From: Nitrospirota bacterium
Lineage (GTDB): Bacteria > Nitrospirota > UBA9217
Assembly: GCA_963754875.1 (NCBI GenBank)
Contig: CAVWHO010000008.1
Location: 192,001-256,000 of the forward strand
Reading direction: 5' to 3'
Length of the DNA stretch: 64,000 bases
The notes below the pieces were generated by a model, which made no database searches, was not told the origin of the DNA, and was given only the letters and a program-made list of their open reading frames with translations. The position numbers and the translations under genes were made by a program. This document shows, piece by piece, positions 36,511 to 57,326 of this stretch; positions within the stretch are counted from its first letter, which is position 1, and every line of letters begins with the position of its first letter.

Positions 36511-36580
36511 GGTCCGATTCTCCGTATATAAGTTCAACCAAAAGCATTTATTCACAGGGATGAAGGCATTCAACGGCCAT

Positions 36581-38234: not shown

Positions 38235-38630
38235 AAGAACAAAGTATCAAGTCAGAGACGCGCTCGAAGTCGGACATCAACTTCGCGCGGCGACAAGCTG
38301 CACTCGTGGTGGACGATTCTAGATCAGGCTAATAAGATCAATACGCTGTTCCTGGAACAAAAAAGCGGGAAACATACGGCTGGACGACTGAAGAAAATTC
38401 CCCTATTTTCATCGAAACTCGTAAATTTGCTTGATTTTTTTTGGGAAAAGAATATAATTCAGCCGTTTTGCTTCTTTTTTAAGGATTAATGCAACAAAAA
38501 AATCTTGTCCGCTTCCCGGACCACGATACCCGACGGTACCTCTAACTGCGGTGCGTTGTTTATTCAATTCATCCTTATTGCGACAAACGCGCTGCTGTTA
38601 TTCAGAAGAGAAGAAAGGGGGTGAAAAAAC

Positions 38631-38789
38631 TTGAAAAAGATCAGTGCAATTATAGCAGTCCTTGCAGTTGTTGCGGTTTTCGCTTTTGCCGGCTGCCAGA
38701 AACAGGAGGCCCCGACGCCTGCACCGCAATCAGCAGTAACGTCAACAGCGACCACCACTGCGCCTGCAGCAATGCCCGGAATGAAGTAA
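38631..38789 (+). CDS. Small 52-aa lipoprotein; absent from ORF track
   Basis: TTG start after purine-rich RBS; KKISAIIAVLAVVAVFAFAGC then P/T/A-rich tail; terminator follows. Confidence 0.75.
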   Translation: MKKISAIIAVLAVVAVFAFAGCQKQEAPTPAPQSAVTSTATTTAPAAMPGMK

Positions 38790-38813
38790 GTGAACGGATT
38801 TACCATAAAGGAA

Positions 38814-38848
38814 GTCCCTCCGGTTTTGTCCTGCCGGAGGGCCTTTTG
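38814..38848 (+). terminator. Intrinsic terminator after the small lipoprotein
   Basis: ccctccgg/ccggaggg stem then ctttt. Confidence 0.6.
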
Positions 38849-38956
38849 TATTGCGGATCTTGCCTTGAATGCCTGTTTTTTGCCTGCAGCGTTTCCCGGT
38901 TGACACCGTTCCCGGCTGCGCTTGCATTGGCGGGGAAATTATTTCATAATGCTCTT

Positions 38957-40192
38957 ATGTCCAGAAAGCAAATCGCCAGCTGGTGTCTTTTCGACTTTGC
39001 GAATTCTAGCTACTCCGCGGTCATAGCTGCCGTCATCTTCCAAGTCTATTACATCAATATTATCGTCGGGAACAAAGAGGGGAAAGGCGACCTTTGGTGG
39101 GGCGCGGCAATCTCGCTCAGCATGCTCGCTGTTTCCCTTTCCTCTCCCTTTCTCGGCGGCATTGCAGATTACACCGGGCTCAGAAAACGCCTCCTTGGGG
39201 CGTACACGCTTACCTGCATATCCGCCGTTACCGCGTTCTCATTGCTCGGCAACGGAGACGTCCTCGCGGGATTTATTCTCATCGTTCTTGCAAACATCGG
39301 CATGGAAGGAGGCCTCGTGTTCTATAACTCCTTCCTGCCGCAGATTGCGCCGGCGGACTACCAGGGCCGCGTCTCAGGATGGGGTTTTGCGGTCGGATAC
39401 GCCGGTTCCATACTCTCGCTCCTGATTGCCCTTCCGCTTGCACAGGCCGGCAGGTTCGAACTCATCTGGATCATGGTGGCTGCATTCTTCGCTCTTTTTT
39501 CCCTTCCTGCCTTTCTCTTCCTGCCGCAGGACCGGCGTATGAAGGTGGCCCCGGCGCAAGCAGGACTCCTGGGAATAAAGAAAGCCTGGCAAACGCTTCG
39601 GGAGATCTGGGGCCGAAAAGAGCCGAGAAAGTTTCTTCTCTCCTACCTCATCTATGAAGACGGCGTGAATACGGTTATCGTGTTCTCCAGCAGCCTGGCA
39701 GCCACAACATTCGGATTCAACCAGAGAGAGCTTATTATTCTGTACCTGCTCGTACAGGTTACGGCGCTCGTCGGTTCATTTCTCCTTTCGAAACCGACGG
39801 ATGTTTGGGGTCCGAAGTTCGTCGTAACGGTTTCACTCCTTCTCTGGTCCCTCGTTTCGGTATCTGCATTCTTCGTCCAGAGCAAGCCACAATTCTGGCT
39901 CATCGCCTGTACCGCCGGCCTGGGTCTCGGTTCCGTGCAGGCAGGGACCCGCGCGTTCTTTACCCAGTTCGTCCCCGAAGGAAAGGAAGCGGAATACTTC
40001 GGGGCCTATTCCCTGGTCGGGAAATCCTCTGCGATCATGGGCCCGCTTGTGTTCGGCCAGGTATCCGCAGCTTTCGGCAGCCAGCGGCCTGCAATCTTGT
40101 CCATTGCTGCCTTTTTTATTATTGGTTTTCTCGTGCTTCGACAGGTCAAAGGGGGCGGACCGAACGTGAGAAGACTGAAGGGACCGGCATAG
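38957..40192 (+). CDS. MFS transporter, UMF1/Atg22-like
   Basis: WCLFDFANS, FYNSFLP, GRVSGWG; about 12 TMs. Confidence 0.88.
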   Translation: MSRKQIASWCLFDFANSSYSAVIAAVIFQVYYINIIVGNKEGKGDLWWGAAISLSMLAVSLSSPFLGGIADYTGLRKRLLGAYTLTCISAVTAFSLLGNGDVLAGFILIVLANIGMEGGLVFYNSFLPQIAPADYQGRVSGWGFAVGYAGSILSLLIALPLAQAGRFELIWIMVAAFFALFSLPAFLFLPQDRRMKVAPAQAGLLGIKKAWQTLREIWGRKEPRKFLLSYLIYEDGVNTVIVFSSSLAATTFGFNQRELIILYLLVQVTALVGSFLLSKPTDVWGPKFVVTVSLLLWSLVSVSAFFVQSKPQFWLIACTAGLGLGSVQAGTRAFFTQFVPEGKEAEYFGAYSLVGKSSAIMGPLVFGQVSAAFGSQRPAILSIAAFFIIGFLVLRQVKGGGPNVRRLKGPA

Positions 40193-40357
40193 CATGTTGC
40201 TGCTGAGGGCACGGAGATGCTGCTAGACTCCACAGCTATTGTAGTACTGCAATCCATACTTCATCTGACCCACTGCCGTACAACGTGAAGTCTGCTCCGT
40301 TGGAGGACCAGCATTTCGCCAGCGGAGCAGATTTGTTAATTAACGCTTCCTTACTCT

Positions 40358-41572
40358 TCAAGATGAAGCAGACCCATAAGTACCCATCTTGAAGCTAAAC
40401 GTTCCCAACAGATGATAGTGGGGCGTAGGTGATATTGTCGAATCGTAATCAGTGAGCATAACATCAAACGTGCCGTTGACGTCGCCCGAGAGTGTTGAAT
40501 CTTGAGTAAAGGTGATGGTGCCGCTCTCCACTTTTTTCAAGGCTGATTTCTCGCCATTGAGAACGATGAAGGTCCCGGGGAACTTTTCATAGAACGTATT
40601 ATCCTCGATAGCAAACGTTTTGCCGCCGATGCTTGGCACGGTTCCATTCGTTTTAGGTATGTCGATCCGCATAACAGTCTTAAAATTCGGGTCCCACACA
40701 TTTTCCCCCACATCGGCCTGTATGGACCAGAAAGAATCATTGTTCGTGGAATAAAAGAAGTTCGGCCTGATGAGGCCGTACTCATCATACGTGACGGTAA
40801 AGCTGTCGGTCGTGTTTTGGGTCGTATCGGCATTCGACGGCACGACAACGGCGGTTGATGCATTCGAATTGCTCATCACGGTTGCGCCGGGTCCGGTTTG
40901 ACCGCCTCCCGAACCGCAGGCAGTCAACGATCCTAATGACATGACGGCGACCAGTACGGAGGTCACCAGCATTTGTTGTAAACGGATTCCGTGCTTAATA
41001 TGATGCGGCTGGACATATCCTTCCTCAATGAGCACCTCACCGAGCTTTTTCCGGCTTAAAACCTGTTTGAGGAGAGCTGCATCAAGCTGCTCACGGGTGA
41101 TGTGGCCGGCTGAGACCAGGATTTCGCCGAGCCGGAGGGGACCGGGAACAGGCTTCGGAGGCTGCTGGTTGTTTTGAAAATCGAGCAGCCTGTTCAGCTG
41201 CTGCTTGGTGAGCATTCCGTTGCGGACAAAAATCTCGCCGAGCTTGTCTCCTGTTTTCTTCTGCTCGTCCAAGGCTTGACTGAGTTCCGCCTCGGTGATG
41301 TGTCCGGCCTGGAGGAGCAACGCGCCGAGCATTTGACGGACTCCGGCCGCAGTTGTAACGGCTTGATCGGTATCATCGAGGCGTTCCTGCACTGCAAGAA
41401 CAGCATTGATGTCCGCGGGATCAAGCACTCCCATTCTGACCAGCACCTGCCCGAGGAGTTCATTGGTATGTTTCTGCTCCTCGAGAGCGCGCCCCAGGTC
41501 CGAGGAAGACATAAAACCGCCGTCAACAAGAATCTGTCCAAACGGCCGTTTAATACGCTTTTGCATCGACAT
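40358..41572 (-). CDS. Protein with three MshEN-like domains, a TM/lipobox segment and an exported C-terminal domain
   Basis: Repeated (R/K)LGxxL...G.I...L..AL..Q motifs, then VLVAVMSLGSLTACG. Confidence 0.75.
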   Translation of the reverse strand: MSMQKRIKRPFGQILVDGGFMSSSDLGRALEEQKHTNELLGQVLVRMGVLDPADINAVLAVQERLDDTDQAVTTAAGVRQMLGALLLQAGHITEAELSQALDEQKKTGDKLGEIFVRNGMLTKQQLNRLLDFQNNQQPPKPVPGPLRLGEILVSAGHITREQLDAALLKQVLSRKKLGEVLIEEGYVQPHHIKHGIRLQQMLVTSVLVAVMSLGSLTACGSGGGQTGPGATVMSNSNASTAVVVPSNADTTQNTTDSFTVTYDEYGLIRPNFFYSTNNDSFWSIQADVGENVWDPNFKTVMRIDIPKTNGTVPSIGGKTFAIEDNTFYEKFPGTFIVLNGEKSALKKVESGTITFTQDSTLSGDVNGTFDVMLTDYDSTISPTPHYHLLGTFSFKMGTYGSASS

Positions 41573-41685
41573 TGCAGACTCCTTTGCGCCCCCTAAAGCG
41601 GCGCCCTGTTTTTCCAAACCAATGCTCCGCTGCGAATAGACCGGCCCTTCGATGGACCAGCCTTCCCACTTACAGAACCATTATA

Positions 41686-42198
41686 TCATGTTTTTCCATA
41701 AATATCTTGTTTTTTTATCACCGCGCTGCTTTGGACGGCGTTTCTGCTCCCTCTGTCTCCATCTCCCGAACCGCTGCTCGCCCTGTATTTCAAAGGACTT
41801 CCGCTGTACTCCGACGGGTAAGCCGGGGCATAGGTCGATTCATGAAGGAAGACTCTTTGCCCGATCAGGGGCGCCAGTTGATGAATGACATGCTCCTTGC
41901 TCAGAAACGCATTGGCCCCGGCATCAACGAACTGACGGGCCCTTGCATCTACGCTGCAACCGATAATGAACGAATCCGGAGAAAATCGGCGCGCCAGTCT
42001 CGCTACCTCATCTCCGTTCATCTCCGGCATCAAATAATCGGTGATGATGATTTCGAAGCGCTTTGATTTCATCAAATCGAGGCCGGACCTCCCGCTCTCG
42101 CAGCAGCTCACGTTATGGCCTTCGAATTCCAGAAGTGCTCGAAGCATATCCCTTGTGGTTTTGTTGTCATCGATGATCAAAACATCCAGTCTGCTCAC
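41686..42198 (-). CDS. Single-domain response regulator receiver
   Basis: LIIDD, TDYLMPEMNG, AGANAFLSK; true 3' end uncertain. Confidence 0.8.
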   Translation of the reverse strand: MSRLDVLIIDDNKTTRDMLRALLEFEGHNVSCCESGRSGLDLMKSKRFEIIITDYLMPEMNGDEVARLARRFSPDSFIIGCSVDARARQFVDAGANAFLSKEHVIHQLAPLIGQRVFLHESTYAPAYPSEYSGSPLKYRASSGSGDGDRGSRNAVQSSAVIKKQDIYGKT

Positions 42199-42237
42199 GT
42201 CTGTTCTCCCACATTATTACCGAACGTTTTTTTGACG

Positions 42238-45200
42238 TTACTGTCCGCTGAACCACTTTACCGCATCACGAACGCTCACCTGATCGAACTTGAGCCGCAG
42301 CTTGATAAAGGGCCCCTCGCTCGTGAAGTCGGACTGTCGAGAAATCACGGTCTTTGAAGCCCGAGAAATTGTATCCCACACTGACCCAGATGTTTTTACC
42401 GGCGTTGTAACCAACCGATGCCCCGGTGCCGTATATCATCTGGTCAACGCTCCATGAGTGCATCATGAGCTCCCGCAGACCGATGTCCCACTTCTTCGTG
42501 ACATCGTACCTGGCTTCGAGACCGGTGAGGTCGGTGTATCCCCGGTAGTCGTTCTGGTCGATGGTTTCCTGGACATACTTGGAGCCGTACTGCACCGAGA
42601 CCTGCGTTCTATCGTCTGTCCTAATGTTCGCGACGAAGTTATTGACCAGGCGCCAACTGTTGTCCTCAATACTCCCCCCGCCATGCTGATCGTTGAGAAG
42701 ATAATCGAGGCGGTCGAGGATTATGAAGCGCGTCTCTGCAGGACGGTACGCAAGAGAAAGACGGAGATCGCTGTTCTGCTGCATCAGCCCGCTTACTGCT
42801 GCGCTCCGGAACGCCTGCAGTCCCGCGGCAAGACCCAGCCCTTCCGCACCTCACCGTTGGACCCGACGAACACGCCGAACTTGTCCTCCGACGTCGAAAC
42901 ACGGTCCTCGACCCGCGCTGTCCAGGACCACTTCTCCTCACGGTACCCCACGCCGAGAGAAACTGCGGTAAAGTCTTCCGTCGTGCCGACGGCCGGCGGG
43001 ACGTTGGTGTTGAAGATATACGGGGCGGTGCTGCTATCCGTGCTCACGCTCGTATTGCGGAGCGTCGTGCTGCGGTCCAGGCCCGCGTCAACGCTCCACT
43101 TCTTCGTGATCTGCCAGGACTGCTTCAATCCCGTGGTGGAGAAGAGCCGCATGCCGTTCTCCGTTGACTGCTGTTCCATCGTTGAACCGACCTGGCCGCC
43201 TGTCCACGGCGCTGCCTTGATCCCGATCCGGGAGGTCTCGGTGTCGATGCCCGACCCCTGCGTCCATTCCTGGTCGGCGAAGAACGTGGCGGTGTCGCTC
43301 AGTTTGTAGTCCGCGCCGACCGTCGTCTTTGTCGGGAAATCGACATTGTCGTTTGAGCCGACAGACTGATCACGGCTCACGCGCAGCGCGAGCCGTTCGG
43401 TGAGCTGGTACTTCGCGCTCGCAAAAAACTGGTCGGACCGGTAGGACTGGCCCATGCGTGAGCGTATCTTCCGCGCTGCGCACGCCGGCCAGGAGATCGT
43501 ACTTGCCCGACGTGTATCTGCCGCGAAGTTCCGCCATGTCCCGAACCGCGCCGGTGGCGAGAACATTCTGCTGGAACACTTCCCCGCCTACGGACCAGAG
43601 TTTGTCGAGCCGGTAGTTGAGGTCTGCACCGACCTTTCGCGTGCCCGTTTCGCTGTTGTTCTGCTGGCCGAGACCAAAGCCGCTCGATTGTTCGCGCACG
43701 TAAGCCTTCCCGTCCATCTTTTCGGAGCGGTGGGAAAGTTCTGTCAGGTAGGCGGACCCGTCATTCGCAATCCCGTCTTCATTGGTGTTCGATGTGGCAA
43801 TTTCCGTCTTGATCTGCGTATGCTCGTTCACCTTGACGGTGGCGTCGACACCGGTGAGATGTCCGACGCCTCCATTGTCTTCCTCGTGAATGTGCGTGGC
43901 GCCGATCTCGACTTTGTTGTTCAGCACACGCACGGCGCCGCGGCCGCCGTAGGTATAGGAATCTCCGGATGCGCCGAAAATCTCATACCGGACCACGATG
44001 AAGATGGGGTTAAAGTTCGCATCGGTGTTGAACACCGGGGACTTGAAAAAGATGGTGCCGGTATCGTAGTCGATGGAGTAATCGAGATACCGGGCGAGCG
44101 GCTGAGAAGAGAGGATCACCTCGCTCCGGTACCGGTCTCTCGTTTCTATGACCACCGTTTCCGAATTGAGCACGATGTTCTTCCGCGACAGCTGGTAGAG
44201 ACCGGACGTGCCGTCGCCGGGGATCTCGTCCTTTACAAAGGTCTGGTCGTTCTTGCTCGCGAACAGCGTGTAGTTGAAGTGGTCCGACTTCATCTCCGAT
44301 TTGACGCCGGTCATCTGACGGCTGTACCGGGACAATTCAGTCATCGTCAGGCCCGTGTCATAGTCGCCGAAGAGGGCATAAAACTGGTCGCGTTCGATCT
44401 TGACGTAAAGGGAGCGGGAGCTGGCCGCGTCGTTGCCCTGCAGCGTACCATCGCCGTACAGGGTATAGTACTTGTTCGGATCGATGGTTTGATAGAGGCC
44501 GTTCTGGTCGCTGTGCACCGCGTTTGCTGCTGTCGTAGGCCAGGGTAAGCAGCCACTCGCCCTTGATCCTGCCTTTAGCATAGAAGGCCAGACGATCATC
44601 TTCGAAGTACTTGTCATCGCCTCCCCCGGAGCTAAAGGTCTCCATGTTGCCTTTCACTACATTGTATCCCACCGTGCCTTCGGCGAGACCGACCAGGACC
44701 CAATCCCGGTTTTCAGGCTTGAGCCAGGTGCGGATTTCCTGGGTGGTGCCGTCGGCAACCTGGAAGCGAAGGACTGCTTCACCGGTCTGCGTGGTCGGAA
44801 CAAGCTCGATCATCGCCACGCCGTCATCGCCGATGAGATAGCGGTATCTATCGGTATTCGGGGCGATGAGTGGTGATTGTTGAAGTTCATCAGCGCGCTG
44901 CTGGGGAATATACGGAGGATCGATGAAATAATCGGCCCGAACACCCTCCCGGGCAGGGTGCCCATCCTTATCCAGAAGCTGGACTGCAAGAATTATCGGG
45001 TTTTTGCCGTCCGCAACGAGCTTCGATCTCTCAGGCAACAGTACCGCCTTTACTGGCGGCCCTGAATAGTGTACGGTCCGCTGCAACCTCTTGATCTCGG
45101 AACCGGAACCGTCTGAGAGAACGAGTTCGAATCTGTTGTCCCCCTCCTGTAGATGGATCCCGCGCCAGAAACTGATGGCGACAGTGCCGTCAGATTTTTT

Positions 45201-48200
45201 AATCATCCCTTCATAATGAAGAGGATCCACTACGTCGCCATTCAAAAGGAGCTTCGGTTTCTGGCCCGGATCGTGTTTTATGGCAATTCTCATGCTCGCA
45301 ATATTGGGACGGTAGCCATCAACAGGCCAGAGCCACTCCAGCCCCGGGGCTGCTTTTTCTACCCAGGCCGTATCGTAGTCAGGCATGGTCTTATTGTCAC
45401 CAACTGTGTGCATCGGCTCCGATTGTGGATTCTCCACCCATACTTCGCCTTGCGCCAGGCCGGTGACCGGGACGGTCTTCATTCCGCTCGTTTCCTTGTC
45501 GTTGCGGATATAGGTCCAGGCGGAATCCTTGCGGGTGTCGACTCTGAACTCCACGCGGCGGTTCTGCGCCCGTCCTTCTGCGGTCCTGTTTGTCGCAATC
45601 GGATCGTCAGGTCCCTTCCCGACGATCGTGATCTGATCCGGGGCGAGCCGGAGGGCCTCGGCAATGACCTTGGCGACCGTCTTGGCGCGGCTTCGCGACA
45701 GCGCGTAATTATCCGGAAACTCCTTGCTGGCCCCGGGCCGGATAGCGTTGGAATCGGTATGACCGGTAACGGTGATATGCTCGATCTTTCTTGATTTCAA
45801 TTGTTCAACGATCTTTTCTATTTCCTTCCGGTCGCTTTGGGACAGGTCCGCCTTCAGCGTAGTCGAACTTGGGATGGAACACGGCGTCGGGTTCACTCAT
45901 CTGACGCTTCAGCTATAGCGGACAAGGTTCGTGTCAGCCACGGGCGTCTTCACTCCTTTTGCCGCCGGAGTGTCGAAAACCAGGAACGCCTTCGTGGACA
46001 GATTTCCCTCAACGCCCTGCGCCGGCGCTGTCGCGAGGAACACGACGGACCCCTCCCAGCCGGCGGGCCGCTCGCCCAGACGGTAGGTCAGGACGCCGTC
46101 GCCGAGGTCAGGATCAGGGACCCGGCCGTCATTCAGACAGCTGCTTCCCGCCGCGTACGTTACGCCGTCCGGCATCATCACGATCAGCCGGAGATTCCGC
46201 ACAGGGACCGCTCCCACATGCAGGTTGGCCGCGTAGGCGACGGTGTATTGGCCGTTCGCGTCCGGGAGACAGCAATTCTCATGCACGAAGGGCACCATGG
46301 CCGCATAGTCGTTATGGCCGTTCACGTCCGGCCTCGCGGTCCCGGTCTGGACCGTGGCCGGGGAATTCTTCTTCAGTTCGCCGAAGCAATGCGCGCCGAA
46401 GGTCCACGTCAGGGCCGTAGCCAGGGAAGCCCCCGGCTCAGCGTCGGCATGGTTGATCGACCCGGTCTGGGTCGTGACCAGGGAAGTCCGCAGCTCAAGG
46501 CCGACCTCGCCGGTCTGCTTCGCCTTCGGAGGGCGGGGCGCAAGATGGAAATCGGCCCTCCACAGCGACCCGCCCTGCAGGTCCACGAACTGCGAAAATG
46601 GCCGAGCCCGCAAACCGGGTGTTGTCCTCGCACTGTTCAGGCTCATATTGCTCGGGCACGTGACCCGTATCGAGCTGCACCACGTGGGTCCCGGCCTGAA
46701 CAGCCGCGAAGTGGTACATCCCGTTCTTGTCGGTCACGACATAGGACCCGTCCTCGAGGAAAATGCGGACCCCCGCGATGCCGCGCCCGTTGTCGCCGCA
46801 GCCTTCGAGGACTCGGCCGACAATGGTCGTTTTGCTCATAAAGAGGTCCTCGGTCACCAGCACCGTGGCCGCGGCCGTGTTGGATACCGCGCCGAGCGAG
46901 CCGCTGGCCACGGCCGTGTTGACGGCCTTTCCGAGGCTCGCCCCCGCGCCCACCTCGGCCACGTAGGTGATGACCGCTTGTCCCGCAGCAACGAGATCGC
47001 CGACGCATAAAGGTGAGGCTCCGGCCGTCTGCGGAGATCGCGGGATCGGGTCCCGGCACGCTGTTCAGCCGCACTGAACCCTTACGGTACCGGAAGCCCA
47101 CCGGCAACCGGTCGGTAATGGTCACTCCCGGCGCCGGTGCGCTGTTATCAATGTTCTCCACCGTGAGCTGATAGGGAACAAAGTCTCCGATCGCCGCAGA
47201 GTCCTTTGCTGCGGACTTTGATCAGGTAGAGCCGCGAGCTTATCGGGTCCGCGGGAATGTCGATATGGATCGCGGGACCGGCGTTCACCACGAACTGCTC
47301 GTCCCGCGACCCGGGGTCCACAATGGCAAAGGGCCCGCCCGACAGGGCCTGCAATGCGGCCGTGGCAACGGTGGAGGGCGCCCGGTATCCCGCGGGCGGC
47401 CGGACGTCGAGACGATAGTTTCCCGGCTTGATGAACGGGAAACGGTATCCGCCCGGCGACATAGGAATAGACCTTTCCGCTGCTGTCCACGGCCGTTCCG
47501 CCGGTGGTCACGTGGCCGGGAAGGTCGCGACACCGTCATCGCCGTACACGCTGGCCGGACCGCCCGTGGACGACGTCCACGAGGGTGACGGTAAGCGCCG
47601 TCAACAGGCTGGCCTGTCGAGCTGTTGAACACGATGCCGTAGGGATCGACCAGCGCTGCGATGGAATGCGTGTCCGTCGGGTCCACGGCATCGGTGTAGG
47701 AGGCCGTAACGCGCGAGTCGTTCACCATGTTCAGAAGACCGTTGTTGCTCGCGACGGGTTGGGAACTGGACTGTATAAAGCCGATGAACACGCCGGTGTT
47801 CGGCCCGGTCTCCGTGAGACGCAGCACTTCCGTGTCCCCGGTCTTGTCGTCGTGGACGGTCACCACGACCGTTTCCGCGACGGCGGGATCGTTGTTCTGG
47901 TCTCCGTCGGTCAGGCGTATGAAGACCGGCTCGCCCGCGTGATACTGCGTCGCCGGGACGAGCGGTACCGTGCTGGGTGAGATCGATGGGCGCGGTAGAT
48001 CCTGCAGGAACCGGCGCGCCTAGAGGCACGAAAGGGTCCGGCCAGGCTTCCGCTGGGACTGTAGGACGTCGGCGGGACCGGAACGAGCTGCGCGCCGGGC
48101 GTCGTCGGGCGCGTACTGGAGGAATTCAATGACCGCTGTGGTCCGCTGGACCGTGGTCGTCACCGATACGGTGTTCGACGCTGCGGTCACAAGACTCCCA

Positions 48201-48436
48201 GCGAAGCCATTGGTATACGTTGCATTCGCGATGTTGCTGATGATCGTGCCGGATGGCGTGATCGACCATCCGGCGGATGAAAACAGATGGATGAATAGGA
48301 ATGATAACAGAAAAATAACGAGGAAAGAAGAAACAGGGACCGCTCCGGCACGCGGACGCACCACGGCCGTGGCTTCACCCGGACGGATGCAGCCCTCGCC
48401 GTTTCTTGCGCGATATGTGTTGAAGCAGTCCCTCAT
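42238..48436 (-). CDS. Giant (about 2000 aa) outer-membrane protein with DUF11 and OmpA-like domains, split by many frameshifts
   Basis: Contiguous fragments: signal peptide + TPSGTIISNIANATY; DUF11 (LYLIK..TDRLP..AVNTA); OmpA (GHTDS..LSRSRA..GRAQNRRVE); beta-strand-rich C-terminus ending FIKLRLKFDQ. Confidence 0.8.
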
Positions 48437-48448
48437 AAAGTATCAATC

Positions 48449-48473
48449 TCCCCGCCCCTCATCAGGGCGGGGA
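48449..48473 (-). terminator. GC-rich hairpin between putative major subunit and giant OM gene
   Basis: tccccgccc/gggcgggga stem, no long T-run. Confidence 0.5.
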
Positions 48474-48486
48474 ATATCACATCTCC

Positions 48487-49590
48487 TTATTGGATAACAA
48501 CCTGATATTTGATTGTGGCGGTAGTTCCTTGAGCAACGGTGAGGCCGGAAACCGTCATTTTGCCCGCAGTAAAATCAGCGCCATCAGCATCACTTGCGTT
48601 CGTTTTGCAAACATTATTCACGACGATACCCGACCCTGCAGCACACGGGCTGGTACCGTCATTAAACTGGGTGTTAAAGGCGATATACCCATTGGGGGCA
48701 TTAATCATAGCACTCAAGTCGTCCGTGATTACAACATTGGTCGCGTCAGCAGCGCCTAATGCGTTGGATACTGTTACGGTGTACGTGACAACTGCTCCAG
48801 GTATCGCCTTGGGGTTCCCGCCTGTACTTGTAGAACCGCTTATGGGGTCCGAATACACAGTAGCCGTCTTGTTTATGGTCAAGCCTGCGGCGGTAACTGT
48901 AAAGCGTCCGCTTGCGGAATGTTTTCCGTCGTGCAGCCCGTCACCAGTAGCGGTCCCTGCTGCGTCGCCGAATATCGTCATTACAACATTGAGATTGGCG
49001 GACTTGAGCCCGGCAGTCTGGGTAGAGGGGGTCAAGGTCCCCGCATCGACCGCTGTTGCCAGGAGGTCGTAATCCGTATATTGAGCATTTGTAGCGGTGG
49101 CCGGTATGTCACCGACGACCAGTACGGTGAAGGTTGCGCCTGACGCGATGTCACCGAAGGTGCTGGCATCAGTGTACAGTGTATCGCCGGCGTCGTATTG
49201 GCCGTTACTGTTGTTATCACGATAAATCTTCGCACCGGTCAAAGACCATGTGTTTGTCGACTTCGACACGGGTGACAGCGCAAAACGCATGGCCGTGTTG
49301 CTGCTATTTGTCACGAGGAACTGGATCGCCTGGTAGGTTGAGCTCGGGGCGCTGGTCACGTCGCTTTGTTTCGTGACGGTCAAGTAGATCACTCTGTCAA
49401 CCATGAAGGTGACGGTGTTCCCCAGCACCGCGGTTTGCGCTACCGTGCCGACCGTATAATTCACTGTTGCCTGGTTCGAGATGGAGACCCCTGCGGCCGT
49501 GTTCGCGGCCTGCGCGAACTTCGGGACCGCCAGGGCAATCGCCGCGAACAGCACTATTGCCGCTATCCTATACATACTTTGCTTCTTCAT
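48487..49590 (-). CDS. Secreted DUF11-type protein (putative major pilin)
   Basis: aaggagg RBS, signal peptide AQA, N-terminal TAAGVSISNQATVNY, C-terminal INKT..IPGAVVTYTVTVSN..ITD. Confidence 0.8.
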   Translation of the reverse strand: MKKQSMYRIAAIVLFAAIALAVPKFAQAANTAAGVSISNQATVNYTVGTVAQTAVLGNTVTFMVDRVIYLTVTKQSDVTSAPSSTYQAIQFLVTNSSNTAMRFALSPVSKSTNTWSLTGAKIYRDNNSNGQYDAGDTLYTDASTFGDIASGATFTVLVVGDIPATATNAQYTDYDLLATAVDAGTLTPSTQTAGLKSANLNVVMTIFGDAAGTATGDGLHDGKHSASGRFTVTAAGLTINKTATVYSDPISGSTSTGGNPKAIPGAVVTYTVTVSNALGAADATNVVITDDLSAMINAPNGYIAFNTQFNDGTSPCAAGSGIVVNNVCKTNASDADGADFTAGKMTVSGLTVAQGTTATIKYQVVIQ

Positions 49591-49769
49591 TGTTTCCTCC
49601 TTGTTTTTTAAATACGGTAATGTAAATTGTTTCAAATTATCGTTCTCAACATGTCAGGTTTCCTTTCCACATCCTAAGAATCATTCGCATAATACGTCTC
49701 CGCTCTTATGTCCTTGAAAAGCAATTTCCGTTTTTCCATGATCATATCCTCCAAATTGAATTTAATCGT

Positions 49770-50264
49770 CTACTTAATCTTGGCCTTGAAAGAAACACTG
49801 CCCGAACCTCCTGCGGGGAGCGGCCTGGTCAGTGTCCACCTGATGCCGTTGTAGTCTTCCGCTCTGGCCTGGCGCACCATTCCCTGGGCGTTCTTGATTA
49901 TCAGTTTCTCCGGCGCGTTGTAGGTCTTCCCGCCGTCCGTTGAAAACTCGATGCGGGTGTTGTTCCCTTCCGCGCTGCCGTCGAGATAGGTCATATGCTC
50001 GTCAATGGGATTGGTGATTACAATGCCGTCGGCGGGCCGCTTTCCGGTGTTGGTATAGTGCGTCGTAAAGATCACCGTGTCTCCCGGCACCGTCGTCGCT
50101 TTCGCGACATCTACCCGTTTAACTAACTTCTCCCCTTTTTGGTTTTTCTCCGCAACCTCGACTTGCGCGACAGACTTGAGCACTATTGCCCCTTTCTGCT
50201 GCGCCCACGCCGCCATCGGCGCCAATAGCGCCAGCGTCAAAACCACCTGTAATATTTTTTTCAT
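49770..50264 (-). CDS. Small secreted DUF11-type protein
   Basis: Signal peptide AWA; VPGDTVIFT..YTN.G..ITNPI..SVSFKAKIK. Confidence 0.8.
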   Translation of the reverse strand: MKKILQVVLTLALLAPMAAWAQQKGAIVLKSVAQVEVAEKNQKGEKLVKRVDVAKATTVPGDTVIFTTHYTNTGKRPADGIVITNPIDEHMTYLDGSAEGNNTRIEFSTDGGKTYNAPEKLIIKNAQGMVRQARAEDYNGIRWTLTRPLPAGGSGSVSFKAKIK

Positions 50265-50282
50265 CGTCATCTCCTCCCTCGT

Positions 50283-51332
50283 CTATTTGATCTTCACATC
50301 AAAAGTTATCGTCTGTACTGGCGAAGCGTTCGTCAGATCGCCAAGTTTTACGGTCACCGTATTGGTCGTTGTGACTCCCACGTCCCCGGCGTCCGTGTCC
50401 GCCGCGTCGGTGAGGGCCGTGTTGTTCAGCCGGAGCGAATTAGCGATATATGTCGTGTTCACCGGCAGCGGATCGCTGATCACGACGTTTGTGGCTGTCC
50501 CGCCGCCCGTTGTCGTTGCCCCGATCGTGTACCGGAGTGTCGCTCCCGGGATGGGCTGGTTTCCGCCCCATTGGTCAAGGATTGTTACGGTCTTATTCAC
50601 GTTCACTTTCAATGCCGCGGTGGTCACGGTAAAGGTAGCGGCCGCGGAGTGTTTTCCGTCCCGCGCCCCGTCGCCGGGGGCGCTTCCCGCAGCGTCCAGA
50701 AACACCGTGTCCACTCCCGCGGTGTCGGGCCCGCTGGTCGGGGTGGAAACATTCAAGGTGCCCGCATCGACCGCCGTTGCCGCAAGGTCGTATGCTGCAG
50801 TCTCTCCGACCGTCAGGCCCGAAGGCGTATCGGCGACAATCAATACGGTTATCGATGCGCCGGTCGCAACGTCTCCAAAAGTGCCTGCGTCCGCATAGAG
50901 GGTGTCTCCCGCGTCCCAGGTGCCGCTGCTGTTATTGTCGCGAAAGATGCGCACATTGCTCATCGTCCACGTGTTCGTAGCCTTCGACACGGCCGCAAAG
51001 GAGAAACGCACGGCCGTATTGCTCATATTGGAGACGAGGAACGACACAGCCATGTTGTTCGAGGCCGGCGAGGTATTCACATCGGCGTTCTTGGTCACGA
51101 CCACGTTGACCACCCGGTCAACCATGAAACTGGTGGTCACGGACGTCGCGGAGCTTCCAACGCCGCCGAGAGTATACCTCACGGATGCAGTGTTCGTGAC
51201 AGCCGTGCCCGCGGCCGTGCCCGCGGCCAGGGCGTTGCCGGACGTGAACAGACACCCGATGAGGAATGCGACGATCGCCCAAAGGGTGCGCAATCTGGAT
51301 GCCCCTTTATTGTTGTGCGGAGTAGAATTCAT
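50283..51332 (-). CDS. Secreted DUF11-type protein (putative minor pilin), paralog of 48487-49590
   Basis: Signal peptide ALA; GTAAGTAVTNTASVRY; shared FMVDRV..RDNNS.G..DAGDTLY..ATAVDAGTL. Confidence 0.8.
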   Translation of the reverse strand: MNSTPHNNKGASRLRTLWAIVAFLIGCLFTSGNALAAGTAAGTAVTNTASVRYTLGGVGSSATSVTTSFMVDRVVNVVVTKNADVNTSPASNNMAVSFLVSNMSNTAVRFSFAAVSKATNTWTMSNVRIFRDNNSSGTWDAGDTLYADAGTFGDVATGASITVLIVADTPSGLTVGETAAYDLAATAVDAGTLNVSTPTSGPDTAGVDTVFLDAAGSAPGDGARDGKHSAAATFTVTTAALKVNVNKTVTILDQWGGNQPIPGATLRYTIGATTTGGGTATNVVISDPLPVNTTYIANSLRLNNTALTDAADTDAGDVGVTTTNTVTVKLGDLTNASPVQTITFDVKIK

Positions 51333-51370
51333 TCGGTCCTCAGTCACGAACAGCTGTCCACAAGATCTTC

Positions 51371-54300
51371 TCAATTGAGCTGCACCCTGAATTTGACGGT
51401 AAAGTTGGCATTGCCGCCGTTCAATGTCCCTTCAGGATTGATACAGAGACCCTTCACATTTGCGTCAAAATTGCCCGTCGGCGAGTAGGTGAAGTTGCCG
51501 CATGCATTGGGCGGAGCCAGAACCGCAGGAAGCGGATACGTAGTTGTATATTTCACGTCGCTTCCGTAACTGAACGTAAGTCCGCAGGCCGGCGACGCGC
51601 TGCACGAAAATAAGACGGGATCGCCGGAGACCGTGGAGACATACAGGGTCGTATTCGTGGGAATGGGGTCCGTAACAACGACGGAACTGCCGTCCGCGAC
51701 GCCGGTCCCGCTGTTCGTCACGGTTACGGTATATTCCAACACGGCGCCGGGGATGGCCCTTGCGCTGGTCGTTACCCCGCTGACGGGATCGGAGATGACC
51801 TGCACGGACTTCAGGACCATGATGTTCGGCATCAGCCCAACTCGGAACGTGCCGGTCCCAAGGTCCGAGATGGTACCTTCCGTTCCCTCGTTGGCGGTGA
51901 CGTTCACTGTCCAATAGCCGGTCGGGCCTGCTGCGGGTACGGTGTAGGCATACTCGTAGGTTTTGGTGCCCGTGGTAGAGGTAACGATGTTCGTCAGCGT
52001 TACTGCGCTCACGATGGCATTGTTGTTCGGGTCCTTGATCGTGATCTTCGTCGAGGAGATGTCGAAGGCACCGAAGGGATCGCTCACAGCTGTCCGCACA
52101 TAAACGGTCTGTCCGCCGATGTAGAAGCCGGAGACCGGGGTAGTCACGGCCGGATAGGCCGCACTGTAAGCGTTGACGCTGTTCACGCCGATCACGTTCT
52201 GAGAGGGCAGACTGACATTGGAAATGTTGCCACCGTTGGCCGGGGTAACGTTCACTCTGCGCGTGGTGCTTGCGGCACCGCTATTGGTGACTCTCAATAC
52301 CCAGGAGTTGCCCGTCGCGCAGGACATCGCAGAGGTCAGGGGCAGATTGAAGGGATAGGATGTCACCGTCCCCGTGAGAGCGAGGGTCCGGGACTGCGTT
52401 ATCAGCGTTCCCGGCGTCGCGGAACAAAACAGATCGACGATTACGGTGTAATTGTTACTGCTGTTGGTCGAGAGATTGAGGGATACCGGCACAGTGGCGC
52501 CGACAGCCGGGGAGATCGTGACCGGGGAGGCCAGGACTGGCAGTTCGGTCCAGCTTTGCGACGAACCCCTGTTGATCGCGACCAGCGGAGGCGCTCCCGG
52601 GGTAGGCGTTCTCGAAAGTGAGTAAGTCGGCGCGCTGTAAAGATACAGCGGCTTGCTGCCCGTCTGAGCAATGGACGAGGCCGACACCGTGATCGTCGGC
52701 GCTGCGGGCGCTGCGCCCGGACCTCCGGGGTTCGTGATCATTGCAGTATTGTCGATCGACGTGCCCGCTACGGTCCCGCCTGCTATCGTAGCAGATACGA
52801 CAATCGGGACATTCCCGTCCGCAGGGACCGATATGTTGGAAACCGTGAGCACTTGACCCGCAATATTGCACATCGCGCCCGAGGGACAGCTTGCTAATAA
52901 ACCCGTCAGCGTTGTAGGAAAGGTGTCCGTCACCGAAACTCCCGGGGCTGCCATGTGACCCGTCTCCTTCAGCATGATCGTGTACTGAATTACGTCTCCC
53001 GGGTTCTGGTCGCCGCCGTTGAGGTCTATCCATGTTTTTGTCGAAGTGGAAAGATCGGAGGGGACGGAAACGCTCACCGTGGCGCTGTCGTCGCTGGAGT
53101 TGTAGTCCGTAATTGCGCCCGGGACGACGAGGCTTGCGGTATTGCTGAGCAGGCTGGGAGCGCCAGCGCCCACGGTCCCGTTGATCGTATAGGTGACATA
53201 TCCGTTCTTGGGGAGGTTGGCGGTGGTATTGATGGCATTCCCGCTCCCCGAGGCCGCCCCGCAGGTTCCGCCTCCCGATCCCGCGCAGGTCCAGGCGACG
53301 CCGGTTATGGCCGCCGGCACGGTATCGAGTATGCCGACGCCGGTCGCCGTCACGTTGTTGGGGCCCGTATTGCTGGCGATGACGGTATAGCGGATCTGGT
53401 CGCCCACCGAAGCTGTTGTCGTCGATCCGGTCGTAATGTCCAAGAACGTCTTGGTGATCGCGAGGTCGATCGCCGAGGTCGTGTTCTGGTCGGTCACGAT
53501 CAGGTTGCGGATCTCGTGATAGTTGGTGGATCCTCCGGTGCTGGCGGCATAGCCGATCTTAAGCTGCTGCGTTGTCGTGATCGCCGGGAGCGCCTGGTTG
53601 GTGATCATCTGGGTAAAAACAAGCGGAGAGCTGTAACCGAATGAGACCCAGACATTGGCGACGGGATTGGGCGCCGGGCTGATCTGGATGCGCACATGGC
53701 GGTAATTCGGGCCGGTCTGAGAAGGTCTTGGCGAGCCGTTGAACCACAGCAGGCCGTTGTTAGCAGAGGTGGCGATCCAGGGATAGGACGCGGCTGACAG
53801 CGTTTGCCCAATGGCCCCTGCACCAAAACCGACCACGGAGCCCCGAAGCGTGATAGTATTTGGGACTGTATTGCTGTTGCCGTAGGCGCTGAGATACCGT
53901 CCTTCGCCGCAGTCGGCGAAATTACCGTATTCATCCACGCCGATCCCGATATAGCCGCCGCTGATCCCGGGAACATTTGAAGGAGCGGGGTTGCCGCAGG
54001 GACTGGTCGTCAGTTTCTGAGCATAACCAAGAGAGCCGCCGAAGGCGCCGATATTGAAGGCACCCACATTCGCGTCGAAGAGATAGACGCTGTAGCCGTC
54101 TGCGCCGGTCCCCCCCCAAGTGGCGTAATCAAACTCGACAAGGAGCCCAGCACTCAGGTCAAAGGCCGTGGTGTTGTAGGCAAACCCGGTCTGGTTGCCC
54201 GTATTGTTCGTCAGGCGCAGCCATCCCTGTCCCACCGGATCAATGGCGCCGCTTCCCGTCAGAATGGTGCCCCCCCCAAGGGTCCAGCCCGCGCTGTTCG

Positions 54301-54433
54301 TGTCGGTCATCGGTGCGTTGATGATGATTGCAGCTGAGGCATTCCCGGCAAGGCCCAAACTGAGGACAACAAGAATAAGGACCAGTATCCTCCGCGTTGA
54401 GTGAACAGCTGATGAAAAATGGCGGTACATCAA
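51371..54433 (-). CDS. Secreted adhesin: lectin-like (ConA-type) domain plus three DUF11 domains
   Basis: WLRLT..GADG..GIGVDEYGN..GYAASTGGSTNYHEI lectin-like motifs; DLAITK, DLSTSTK, IMVLKS repeats. Confidence 0.82.
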   Translation of the reverse strand: MMYRHFSSAVHSTRRILVLILVVLSLGLAGNASAAIIINAPMTDTNSAGWTLGGGTILTGSGAIDPVGQGWLRLTNNTGNQTGFAYNTTAFDLSAGLLVEFDYATWGGTGADGYSVYLFDANVGAFNIGAFGGSLGYAQKLTTSPCGNPAPSNVPGISGGYIGIGVDEYGNFADCGEGRYLSAYGNSNTVPNTITLRGSVVGFGAGAIGQTLSAASYPWIATSANNGLLWFNGSPRPSQTGPNYRHVRIQISPAPNPVANVWVSFGYSSPLVFTQMITNQALPAITTTQQLKIGYAASTGGSTNYHEIRNLIVTDQNTTSAIDLAITKTFLDITTGSTTTASVGDQIRYTVIASNTGPNNVTATGVGILDTVPAAITGVAWTCAGSGGGTCGAASGSGNAINTTANLPKNGYVTYTINGTVGAGAPSLLSNTASLVVPGAITDYNSSDDSATVSVSVPSDLSTSTKTWIDLNGGDQNPGDVIQYTIMLKETGHMAAPGVSVTDTFPTTLTGLLASCPSGAMCNIAGQVLTVSNISVPADGNVPIVVSATIAGGTVAGTSIDNTAMITNPGGPGAAPAAPTITVSASSIAQTGSKPLYLYSAPTYSLSRTPTPGAPPLVAINRGSSQSWTELPVLASPVTISPAVGATVPVSLNLSTNSSNNYTVIVDLFCSATPGTLITQSRTLALTGTVTSYPFNLPLTSAMSCATGNSWVLRVTNSGAASTTRRVNVTPANGGNISNVSLPSQNVIGVNSVNAYSAAYPAVTTPVSGFYIGGQTVYVRTAVSDPFGAFDISSTKITIKDPNNNAIVSAVTLTNIVTSTTGTKTYEYAYTVPAAGPTGYWTVNVTANEGTEGTISDLGTGTFRVGLMPNIMVLKSVQVISDPVSGVTTSARAIPGAVLEYTVTVTNSGTGVADGSSVVVTDPIPTNTTLYVSTVSGDPVLFSCSASPACGLTFSYGSDVKYTTTYPLPAVLAPPNACGNFTYSPTGNFDANVKGLCINPEGTLNGGNANFTVKFRVQLN

Positions 54434-54992
54434 ATGATGCCCCCTCCTGCCGAGCGTTTTACTGAAACTTCACGCGCACAGTTATGGCGTTATAGCGTTC
54501 TACAAAAAATATCTGATAAATCTGTAATTCGGCAATCCCCCCCGGGGTTGGCGGACTACAACTAAGGTAAGACAATTTTAGGATAAATATTATTTTTTGT
54601 CAATACATTTTTTTATGGTATTGCATTTTATTGTAACCCTCTACAGCGCCTAAATAGGTAATTTAGAACAAAATAAGGCATTTCAAGAATAATTCGGTCA
54701 GCTTTTGAACAACCAAATTGCTGCACTTTCCACATCTGCCGGAAGAAAGGGTTAAATTGTACTGGATAGAGAGAAGCTGGATTGGGAATACAGAATGTTG
54801 TGATACTTGAATTACTTGGAGTCGTTATGCGGGTCCTGAAAAACAAAAAGAAAGAAGATGGTCGTTGAAATATATGTTTTTTATATTTCAGAGCGTTGTA
54901 ATAAGCGCTCACATGCGTACGGCGATTTTTATGACCAAAAAGGGCTAAGGTTATTTTGGCCAAACTATGACCTCCTTCATTATCATCTGTAC

Positions 54993-55640
54993 TCACGATG
55001 ATTTATGCTTATGAAATTCTTTTCGCAACTCACGGAAAGATTCAAACCATGATTTTTTCACATCATCTGGCCATGAAGGATCAAAATCAGGAAATTTATT
55101 TAACCAGACTTGCTCAGATGATATGGTTTTTTCAGCTTTTATTACCTTAGATTCATCTTGTTCAATGCTGGAAAATTTAAATTTTTTGATATGCGGTGAT
55201 AGTTCTATCCCCGTATATTTTGCTGCAGCTAAGAAAAACGCTACACTTTTTCTAATGGTCCCACCAAAGGCACCAGCTTTCTCAAAACAGAGCTGTAAGT
55301 CTTTCGATGTGGCACTTTTTAGATCAAATCCTTCACTAAATAAAAAAGGATAGGATGCAATTATGATCTCTCGGAGTATTGTCTTTTTTTCTTCTTCAGA
55401 TGCTTCAACTAATTTATGGAATTTTTCAGTTGGAATACCATCGTGTCCTGACATTAAGTGAAAATATTTTAGAGTCGTAATAAGTTGAGCCTGGGCAGCA
55501 CTGGAAAAAGAACTCAAGGTCTTAATATTGCGGTCAATCTTATTTGGTACACCAACTTTTGCCAGCCCCTCAATAAAGTTAAGAAAGGTGTTAAGGGAGA
55601 GGTAAGGTGGGGTTAGTATCTTATCTTTAATTTTTTCCAT
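54993..55640 (-). CDS. AT-rich hypothetical protein, DUF5343-like
   Basis: PPYLSLNTF..GVPNKID; C-terminal KFPDFDPSW..W; family call from memory. Confidence 0.55.
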   Translation of the reverse strand: MEKIKDKILTPPYLSLNTFLNFIEGLAKVGVPNKIDRNIKTLSSFSSAAQAQLITTLKYFHLMSGHDGIPTEKFHKLVEASEEEKKTILREIIIASYPFLFSEGFDLKSATSKDLQLCFEKAGAFGGTIRKSVAFFLAAAKYTGIELSPHIKKFKFSSIEQDESKVIKAEKTISSEQVWLNKFPDFDPSWPDDVKKSWFESFRELRKEFHKHKSS

Positions 55641-56176
55641 ACAAAAGTCTTCCTGAAAATATTCCGTATAATCCTTTTATATCAGATACGCATATTCCTG
55701 TCAAGAGGAATATATTCCATTTTTTATTTTTTTCCAATATGCTTTATGAACCGACAGCGTATACTGTTAAAATTATTAACTTACAGGAAATAAAAGGTTG
55801 GACTGATGTTATATAATATTCCATATATTCCAACATTCCATCTATTAGAAAAAATGAATATTCATTTTAATAGAGAAAATATTCTTTTGTGCCGACTTTT
55901 TTGTAATATTTTTTATACAGAAAGGAAATATGCTTTAGGAATGGCGAGAGAATTGTCAGGCCTTAAAAGGAAATGAACCTTTACAGCAGAATGTAGAATG
56001 TAATGAGACCGACAGCAAAAAAATATTTAATGTTACAAAAGACGTATGATGAAACCTGCCAGTTATGCACGTCAAGAACCACGCGTCAAGATGCAGGGCA
56101 AACTGGCATGTTTTCGTCGATCGAACTTTTATAAAATAAACGAGAATAGCCAAGAAGAATGACTACAGCAGCATCT

Positions 56177-57031
56177 TCACGAAAGATCGCTGCCCCAAGA
56201 TTGGAAGGCGTTCCCTTTTTCATCGAGCTTGCAGGCAAGCAGGTAAGGATCATGATAAAAGGTAAACCAGGCGCCGTTATCGATTCCGATCTTAATCCAC
56301 TTTTCCTTCATTGCAATTGAATCCATGGGATAGTTATCATAGGCCATGACCCACAATGGGTTAGCATGTGCATGCGTGGGGAAAAGATCGCCAAGGTGCA
56401 ACGCAGTTTCTGCTTTTGATTTCATGTGTACGATCTGGTGCCCGCTGTTGTGCCCCCCCGTATGGACAACTGATATCCCCGGGACGACCTCTGCTTCTCC
56501 GTTCACCAGTTCGAGCTTGTCGTTTCCCTTCATCAGTTCTATGTTTACGGGCCAATACGTGTTAATGGACCTTGCATTCGGGCTCAACACGCCCTCCCAC
56601 TCCTTTTTTTGGAGTATGTGTTTCGCCTTTGGAAAGGTGAGAGCAAGCCGGCCAGTTTCGTCCTGCATGATAACGCCTCCCGCATGGTCGAAATCATAAT
56701 GAGTCAGAATGACGAAATCGATGTCCGTGCGCGAGATGCCGAGTTGATCAAGCTCTTGGAGAACGGACCATTCCTCCTTGACGAGGAAGATATTCTTCTG
56801 TTTGTCCGTCAGTTTATTCCCGAGCCCCGTCTCAATGAGCACGAGGGCACCCGGCGTCTTTACCAGGATGGGCCATGCACTGAGGCTGATTGTGTTCTCA
56901 TCGGTCGCCGGATATTTCTTCTGCCAGAGCACCTTCGGCACGACACCGAACATTGCTCCGCCGTCCAGCTCGAACCTGCCGCCGTTCAGCCACGTCAGTT
57001 CAAAATCACCCAACCGGAATCCTGTTTTCAT
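56177..57031 (-). CDS. MBL-fold metallo-hydrolase (YtnP-like)
   Basis: LDGGAMFGVVPK, THYDFDHAGG, GGHNSGHQ, FYHDP. Confidence 0.9.
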   Translation of the reverse strand: MKTGFRLGDFELTWLNGGRFELDGGAMFGVVPKVLWQKKYPATDENTISLSAWPILVKTPGALVLIETGLGNKLTDKQKNIFLVKEEWSVLQELDQLGISRTDIDFVILTHYDFDHAGGVIMQDETGRLALTFPKAKHILQKKEWEGVLSPNARSINTYWPVNIELMKGNDKLELVNGEAEVVPGISVVHTGGHNSGHQIVHMKSKAETALHLGDLFPTHAHANPLWVMAYDNYPMDSIAMKEKWIKIGIDNGAWFTFYHDPYLLACKLDEKGNAFQSWGSDLS

Positions 57032-57046
57032 AATAGGCTCCCCATA

Positions 57047-57071
57047 AAAAAAATGCGGCCCGAAGGCCGCA
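57047..57071 (-). terminator. Intrinsic terminator downstream of prpE
   Basis: tgcggcc-ttcg-ggccgca followed by T-run. Confidence 0.75.
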
Positions 57072-57326
57072 GTCCCTGATCAAACCAGGAAAATACCGCT
57101 ACAATCATGGAGAAGAGAGAAGATCACAGGGCAATAGCAAAATCCCCTATCTGCCAAACTGCGCGTCCAGTGAAATCGGTAAAAGATCATTGACCACAGA
57201 CACGGACGGAGGAAGTGCTCTGAAAAAAAAGTCCCCCCTCACGCTTTGAGCCCCTGGGGTGAAATCCGTTTATTCAAGACAGTCACGACGTAACGAGGGG
57301 CTCTGTTCACCCCCGTGTCCTCTGCT

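Follow-up and report, generated by a model that had tools for sequence, protein, structure and literature searches.

We have analysed a 64,000-nucleotide stretch of DNA from a Nitrospirota bacterium (assembly GCA_963754875.1, contig CAVWHO010000008.1, forward-strand positions 192,001 to 256,000; hereafter the window, whose numbering we use) and find five co-oriented genes on its minus strand between positions 42238 and 54433. In order, these encode a tip adhesin of 1020 amino acids (51371-54433), a putative adaptor of 349 amino acids that we refer to as pilin A (50283-51332), a small secreted protein of 166 amino acids (49770-50270), a putative major subunit of 367 amino acids, pilin B (48487-49590), and a giant outer-membrane (OM) protein (42238-48436) of about 2060 amino acids in relatives. 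The original prediction for this locus listed these genes with the exception of the small one, whose product is another truncated DUF11 protein. The first four genes match DUF11 (PF01345) or the NCBIfam repeat model TIGR01451, pilin B matching TIGR01451 only, and by these matches they belong to the DUF11/CLIPPER family. The closest named sequence records for the cluster are Nitrospirota genomes. On balance we favour the reading that the cluster specifies a self-locking surface fibre made of split CLIPPER domains and rooted in an OM pore.

A DUF11 domain divided between proteins

In its solved structure the CLIPPER domain is nine-stranded and CnaA-like, rather than CnaB-like as first assumed for DUF11 at this locus, and an isopeptide bond joins Lys715 to Asn806 beside Asp748, with one further strand following the Asn (PMC12617251). 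The DUF11 motifs quoted in the original prediction are all present where it had placed them. Two complete repeats of the adhesin carry all three residues within one domain of one chain (K328/D370/N431 and K466/D503/N562), as do 353 of 365 complete domains taken from collected loci and long homologues. The terminal domains of the adhesin, pilin A and pilin B do not: as had been claimed, each keeps the Lys and the Asp but stops before the Asn strand, at the sequence F/Y-x-V-x-(L/I)-x followed by the stop codon. Among 333 terminal domains of classed clusters, the classes having been chosen by terminal motif, an Asn-strand motif follows the Asp in one. Asn-bearing segments are instead found at the start of mature pilin A (Asn47), pilin B (Asn39) and the OM protein (Asn68). 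The split can thus be read directly in the sequence, as can the gene set and the conservation of both.

The adhesin consists of a signal peptide, a putative lectin-like domain, two complete DUF11 domains, further beta-rich domains and a truncated DUF11, the acceptor half-domain (51374-51829; Lys875 at 51809-51811, Asp922 at 51668-51670), and a donor is absent. The proposal of a lectin tip therefore holds as regards an acceptor-only tip, but the lectin call itself is weak (PF18483, E 2.5e-4, 21 bits against a cut-off of 78). Pilin A comprises a donor hairpin (51120-51224; Asn47 at 51192-51194), a middle region that fold alignment identifies as a separate Ig-like domain, and an acceptor with Lys247 and Asp287; the acceptor of pilin B has Lys241 and Asp290, and the donor segment of the OM protein, which has no terminal acceptor, lies at 48107-48265 (Asn68 at 48233-48235). 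The last domain of pilin A aligns to PDB entry 9IFR (Z 7.8, root-mean-square deviation (rmsd) 2.5, 91 residues) over chain residues 18-109, a numbering in which Asn806 is not placed. The mature start of each pilin is predicted, by monomer modelling, to be a two-strand hairpin. Together with the strand order of CLIPPER and the ending of terminal domains before the Asn strand, this identifies the donor as a hairpin; the missing element is hence where it was first thought to be, but comprises two strands, the Asn strand and the final strand, and not one. We note that the middle domain of pilin A contains a conserved Asp-rich loop, DNNSSGTWDAGD, in which D132 and D143 are invariant in 79 rows and which presumably resembles a calcium-binding loop. 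A second bond in this domain was considered and is not claimed, its Lys-like position not being conserved.

We propose that the operon builds an adhesive surface fibre, its repeat unit being a tandem DUF11/CLIPPER stalk divided with an offset of half a repeat. A pilin would begin with the last two strands of one domain, including the Asn, and finish with the remainder of a domain, including the Lys and the catalytic Asp. When a hairpin from one subunit fills the last domain of the next, the Lys-Asp-Asn triad would be restored and would form an isopeptide bond with no need of an enzyme. The likely order is the adhesin (the tip, an acceptor only), pilin A, pilin B in repeated copies and the OM protein (the base, a donor only), which would grip peptidoglycan through its OmpA domain. 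Either the fibre or the OM protein's own Ig stalk would exit through the large barrel, and the small Lys-less DUF11 protein would reversibly cap free donor hairpins in the periplasm, so that premature locking is prevented.

Probable joining of subunits and a likely isopeptide lock

We assessed conservation in 132 distinct clusters or cluster fragments gathered around the small gene; the genomes are related and not independent, and counts are given without P values. The expected gene layout recurs among them, and this recurrence, together with the Lys and Asp of pilin A, which are kept in 120 of 120 homologues, argues that the layout is not due to chance. The pilin A counts (120, and 113 below) come from an independent homology search and are free of selection by profile or motif. 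In the adhesin acceptor of 53 relatives and the window (six misclassified rows were dropped) the Lys is present in 54/54 and the Asp in 53/54, with Glu in 1/54, and no donor was called in 42 of the 43 adhesins with a closed 5' end. Pilin B has the Lys in 89/90 and the Asp in 90/90, and its donor Asn in 97 of 99 called, four not being called. The donor Asn of the OM protein is present in 72 of 73 called and in 63/63 among rows picked by the donor profile; the 16 OM rows missed by the profile comprise 14 with the Asn motif by eye, one inner fragment and one discussed below. Triad conservation across pilin B and the OM protein thereby matches that of intact domains.

The best new evidence that subunits join in trans is, at the level of sequence, a set of single-domain pilins of 160-187 amino acids that lack the middle domain and represent a putative minimal split-CLIPPER subunit (L039 9388-9951; L065 315-857; P0159, P0173, P0258, P0271-P0278 and P0283). 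Those of clusters L039 and L065 stand at the pilin A position and the others come from protein collections; Asn, Lys and Asp are kept in 14/14 aligned. Their Asn-to-Lys spacing is 34-37 residues, and in intact tandem stalks an Asn and the Lys of the following repeat lie a median of 32 residues apart (interquartile range 30-35.5, n=231, many of these spacings coming from a few long proteins), so that a single-domain pilin is the end of one repeat joined straight to the start of the next. With a linker of about 4 residues, the hairpin cannot return across its own Ig domain; the two ends of a domain with an odd number of strands, here nine, should lie at opposite poles, which fits the beads-on-a-string stalk reported for Litorilinea. 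Moreover, an acceptor-only adhesin and a donor-only OM protein each need another chain, neither being capable of self-completion. In two-domain pilin A the linker from the donor to the next domain is 10 residues in 116/116, the mode of tandem stalks, and the linker before the acceptor is 9-13 residues. That pilin A keeps its Lys and Asp where its own Asn is missing suggests, in addition, that the Lys is independent of that Asn. We therefore consider it very likely that head-to-tail complementation occurs in trans, and conservation, gene order and the single-domain pilins all support this part of the original prediction.

It is conceivable that the pilins are instead monomeric circular permutants, each hairpin folding into the last domain of its own chain, with the adhesin pairing directly with the OM protein. 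The pilin A monomer is modelled with confidence, its middle Ig domain could bridge both ends, and a natural form with a 63-residue spacer (P0232) might allow closure. We regard such permutants as very improbable given the stalk-length spacing of 14 single-domain pilins, the linkers of two-domain pilins that equal straight tandem linkers, and the loss of the Asn from 42/113 pilin A proteins as against 8/365 intact domains. When a complex of four chains was predicted (pilin A as partner of the adhesin acceptor, pilin B and the OM donor), the score was 0.65, as against 0.67 for a control, and speaks for neither side.

Isopeptide chemistry has been demonstrated inside a CLIPPER domain (PMC12617251) and, between subunits, in BsaA (PMC11580942). 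If subunits join in trans, the conserved residues make a covalent isopeptide bond decidedly probable. The intermolecular lock that was first envisaged is supported at most junctions, which have the full Lys-Asp-Asn triad, but some junctions need not be covalent, the Asn being frequently absent from the pilin A donor. A wholly non-covalent fibre of donor hairpins, in which Lys, Asp and Asn are retained because folding needs them and do not bond one chain to another, would accommodate the Ser, Cys, Thr, Gly or Asp that pilin A tolerates in place of the Asn, as well as the retention of the adhesin Lys and Asp regardless of the pilin A Asn, and an Asn mutant of BsaA is reported still to form oligomers when unheated (PMC11580942). 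We consider it improbable, since the small protein has the same half-fold with the Lys in 0/121, indicating that the fold does not depend on the Lys, and since buried Lys, Asp and Asn are the reactive signature of the solved CLIPPER domain (PMC12617251).

Several observations weigh against the fibre as we propose it. Donor rows were chosen by donor profile and acceptor rows by terminal motif, so that the counts drawn from them are inflated. The conservation foreseen for Lys, Asp and Asn holds in the adhesin, pilin B and the OM protein, but the pilin A donor Asn is present in 71 of the 113 homologues that cover the site and missing in 42, with a minimum of 19 changes by parsimony on a tree from which the donor was left out, and is replaced by Ser, Cys, Thr, Gly or Asp. 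We had predicted that the adhesin Lys and Asp would decay where the pilin A Asn is lost, and this prediction failed: in 12 of 37 loci the pilin A donor has no Asn, and the adhesin keeps Lys and Asp in all. Conservation of Lys and Asp alone is thus no proof of reaction with the proposed neighbour, and the argument from a pilin A Lys kept without its own Asn is weakened. It also means that the order of subunits is only inferred, and either the adhesin-pilin A junction can be non-covalent, or the adhesin also takes the pilin B donor, as it might in the 19 clusters that have no pilin A, or the pilin A donor mostly binds the unreactive small protein. The OM protein of cluster L163:9089 has no evident donor. 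The pilin A monomer model is confident throughout (predicted local distance difference test (pLDDT) 96.8), the position of the hairpin is not visible in it, and self-closure of two-domain pilins may be compatible with this model. The OM gene is broken in the present assembly.

We lean towards a long homopolymer of pilin B, an assignment that we make with fair confidence from its two conserved halves. The alternative is a short chain of fixed composition, in effect a split giant adhesin, in which joining is again in trans and probably covalent but a subunit is present in only one or a few copies. The OM stalk matches the C-terminal part of an unsplit giant adhesin encoded on contig C20 of the same genome (E 3e-21), pilin B of 870-1130 amino acids in some lineages is already a long stalk, and high expression is unsupported beyond a weak hairpin signal. 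This signal is a GC-rich RNA hairpin (48447-48473, minus strand; -22.9 kcal/mol) directly 3' of the pilin B stop, which may stabilise the upstream mRNA; across loci such hairpins are found at 54% of pilin B ends and at 24-29% of the ends of other genes, a difference confounded by G+C content. A scan of positions 38000-58000 against Rfam gave no match. Pilin B, on the other hand, keeps both halves with all three residues, and pilin A, pilin B and the OM protein share a single donor motif, so that there is no evident bar to pilin B binding itself; we therefore judge the short chain unlikely.

The small protein is homologous to the adhesin acceptor (hhalign 98%) and carries no donor, with Ser33 and Asn87 at the sites of the reactive Lys and Asp. 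Among its relatives the Lys is found in 0/121 and an Asn replaces the Asp in 99/121, and as its half-fold is the same, the Lys appears dispensable for folding. Lys and Arg make up 14% of the small protein and about 4% of the pilins, and the small protein is present in all 23 genomes with a pilin match in a 251-genome sample. A reversible cap for donor hairpins would be expected to take the form of such an unreactive acceptor, and we incline slightly to the view, from these sequence features, that the candidate is a chaperone for them. In 19 clusters pilin A is missing and the adhesin adjoins the small gene.

The outer-membrane protein, its relatives and its surroundings

The OM protein had been taken to be the product of a single gene. 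In the window, however, it aligns to an intact relative in nine pieces spread over three frames. The gene is intact, as a single open reading frame (ORF) of more than 1500 amino acids, in 51 of 79 relatives' clusters, the remainder being cut by contig ends or broken, and close relatives, in which long pieces are about 90-97% identical, have short-read contigs that are free of at least seven of the indels. A gene that by eye is aconitase-like (59360-62119, minus strand) is likewise split over several ORFs, which again points to indel errors in the assembly. Sequencing error is thus the likeliest cause of the breakage, strain-specific decay being the alternative. The donor-less OM protein of L163 belongs to one of two divergent clusters that lie back to back (G514:C36).

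From its donor hairpin, the OM protein continues into an Ig stalk that contains a single complete DUF11 besides SdrD_B-like domains, an OmpA-like peptidoglycan-binding domain (45558-45854; PF00691, E 7e-16) and a large predicted C-terminal beta-barrel (42238-44813), placed from the intact relative L003, whose OM protein has the same set of complete DUF11, SdrD_B-like and OmpA domains. The last 851 residues of the L003 protein are modelled as a barrel (pLDDT 80) of about 38 strands, counted by hand from the DSSP string of the model, and strand 7 is followed by a small inserted beta domain. The SprA barrel has 36 strands. Fold searches with the L003 barrel against solved structures returned generic barrels only (best Z 14.7, rmsd 7.9), and FimD stood among many barrels at a TM-score of 0.21-0.23, with 24 strands against the roughly 38 counted here. 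Ushers consist of a 24-strand barrel and a plug (PMC13721041); the present barrel is predicted to be larger, and the domain inserted in it may, by analogy, act like the usher plug.

A second locus of this genome (G000:C20:30589-45288) encodes a giant adhesin with complete DUF11 repeats, in two overlapping ORFs, followed by a 1714-amino-acid OmpA-barrel protein homologous to the OM protein (E 7e-80); the match between the giant adhesin and the OM stalk covers residues 263-597 of the L003 protein. In Thermus brockianus and Synechococcus NIES-970 the donor-only stalk is a gene of its own, and the gene after it matches the barrel profile in Synechococcus and, over the part fetched, does not in Thermus. 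The barrel homologue beside an unsplit adhesin and the stalk as a separate gene suggest that one barrel family displays DUF11 stalks, whether whole or in subunits. We note that helical-repeat genes, identified by eye, follow the OmpA-barrel homologue on C20, where a possible unsplit sister system may be present, and that G000:C20:24609-27857 contains three adjacent genes whose products resemble, by eye, a vWA protein, a PP2C-like phosphatase and a kinase-like protein.

Donor and stalk are N-terminal to the OmpA domain, which is necessarily periplasmic, so that export requires threading through the barrel. If no such threading took place, the chain would stay in the periplasm as a scaffold tied to the OM barrel and peptidoglycan. 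We consider this extremely improbable, as the tip protein varies between loci from about 600 to 2200 amino acids, as expected of an exposed adhesin, and the predicted barrel exceeds the 24-strand usher. Passage of the fibre, or of the Ig stalk, through the modelled barrel seems likely to us.

The small gene is found in 27 of 251 Nitrospirota genomes, patchily within the genus (2 of 13 other genomes), in 22 of 400 genomes of the class of Lysobacter (a count that includes one unpublished genome, G513, one genome being unscored), in 13 of 251 genomes of the phylum of a 'Deltaproteobacteria' record, and on five plasmids, and the gene set also occurs in Thermus and a cyanobacterium. The clusters of Thermus brockianus pTB1 (L189), which follows carotenoid genes, and a Synechococcus NIES-970 plasmid (L190) encode long pilins of 882 and 911 amino acids with donor and acceptor. 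Searches of the ESM Atlas returned only unnamed DUF11 or OM clusters, and PDB sequence searches nothing useful.

Upstream of the operon, a sigma-70-like promoter site (TTGACA-17-TAAAAT, 54575-54603, minus strand) lies about 140 nucleotides from the first gene and matches the consensus at 11/12 positions, but promoter-like sites overall (7 found, against a mean of 6.0 in shuffles) are not in excess. A DUF5343 gene (54993-55640, minus strand) is located further upstream in a low-G+C stretch (40%). Directly after the OM gene is a stand-alone response regulator (41686-42198, minus strand), and 40358-41617 (minus strand) encodes four MshEN-type cyclic di-GMP-binding repeats (NF053729, E 2e-48) with a lipobox-like segment mid-protein. 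An MshEN-type gene is likewise 3' of the OM gene in clusters L001, L002, L003, L006, L007 and L022, and this neighbour may tie the fibre to cyclic di-GMP control. A complete resistance-nodulation-division efflux trio (AcrB-like, HlyD-like and outer-membrane efflux protein) occupies 32193-38095 (minus strand), with no operon link seen.

Relation to known fibres and pili

Pfam and NCBIfam scans covered 17 ORFs of the locus and 10 further ORFs of the window, and in these no type IV pilus gene was found, no search dedicated to them having been made. Neither a sortase nor a match to PapD_N (PF00345) was found in the 90%-complete genome, as had been claimed for the locus, but a probable chaperone unrelated to PapD is present in the form of the small protein; an usher (PF00577) had no match in this genome or on the locus ORFs. 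A partial match to the anammox S-layer model NF052345 (27 bits against a cut-off of 1400) was rejected as an identification. The Litorilinea hook, the candidate phyla radiation (CPR) Pam pilus, the Microcystis CT pilus and tafi are, as described, different systems, and 'DUF11' in the tafi paper denotes DUF1102. We have found no published description of a split CLIPPER fibre, its barrel or its operon, in a search that reached few subscription journals.

Type V pili of Bacteroidota are built from a protease-cleaved lipoprotein precursor with a C-terminal donor strand, whereas the pilins here, by eye, have ordinary signal peptides and N-terminal donors. Sortase-assembled pili are, like the proposed fibre, covalent polymers of Cna-type Ig pilins with a tip, shaft and base, but they need a sortase and an LPXTG motif (PMC13721041), and the present pilins stop at the last strand, with no sorting signal. 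CLIPPER/DUF11 itself (PF01345; 9IFR) is the same family with the same Lys, Asp and Asn; in the available text of PMC12617251, the main text of which does not contain the word 'donor', it is described only whole, with an internal bond and in long single-chain adhesins, and here it is split between proteins.

The closest parallel in principle is BsaA of Clostridium perfringens, in which an N-terminal donor bearing an Asn becomes locked, with no enzyme involved, to a Lys on the next subunit and mutants of which lose heat-stable oligomers (PMC11580942). As described there, BsaA differs in belonging to the TasA family, in using one short strand and a Glu catalyst, in SipW processing, and in coming from a one-membrane cell with no OM barrel. 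TasA and peptidase families had no match on the locus ORFs and TasA was not among the listed fold matches, SipW not having been searched for genome-wide. The archaeal thread Saci_0406 is also a head-to-tail donor-strand fibre with proposed inter-subunit isopeptide bonds, but these run from the N-terminal amine to an Asn of subunit n+2, the protein is archaeal, and in the available text no link to DUF11 is seen (PMC9715654). The principle of a donor strand combined with an inter-subunit isopeptide is therefore known from these two reports, which concern neither this fold nor a pathway across two membranes; it is the pathway and its parts that would be new.

Chaperone-usher pili (Fim, Pap) share with the proposed fibre an incomplete Ig fold completed by the N-terminus of the next subunit, which at our locus is seen by sequence and model, as well as an acceptor-only tip and an OM barrel, but they are non-covalent, donate one strand, and use the strand-donating chaperone PapD and a 24-strand usher (PMC13721041). 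Here, unlike in those pili, the putative terminator is fused to the barrel protein. Our broadest proposal, which is tentative, is of a new class of pilus in two-membrane bacteria of five or more phyla. Its phase-shifted CLIPPER domains would polymerise covalently with no enzyme, guided by a chemically disarmed acceptor as chaperone, and the polymer would be exported through its own barrel of about 38 strands, whose N-terminus would be both covalent terminator and anchor. The barrel family would then be an undescribed pore that also serves unsplit giant DUF11 adhesins, and the pilus would have arisen by the cutting of such an adhesin. If true, the fibre would be widespread in environmental bacteria, Thermus brockianus and Lysobacter sp. 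A03 being among its cultured hosts, and would offer protein engineering natural split isopeptide pairs that polymerise, with single-domain subunits of about 150 residues. Gram-negative pili have been reviewed as non-covalent donor-strand assemblies (PMC13721041), and the known covalent pili belong to archaea and to bacteria with a single membrane; the fibre would, if true, add a pilus class and probably an OM export pore.

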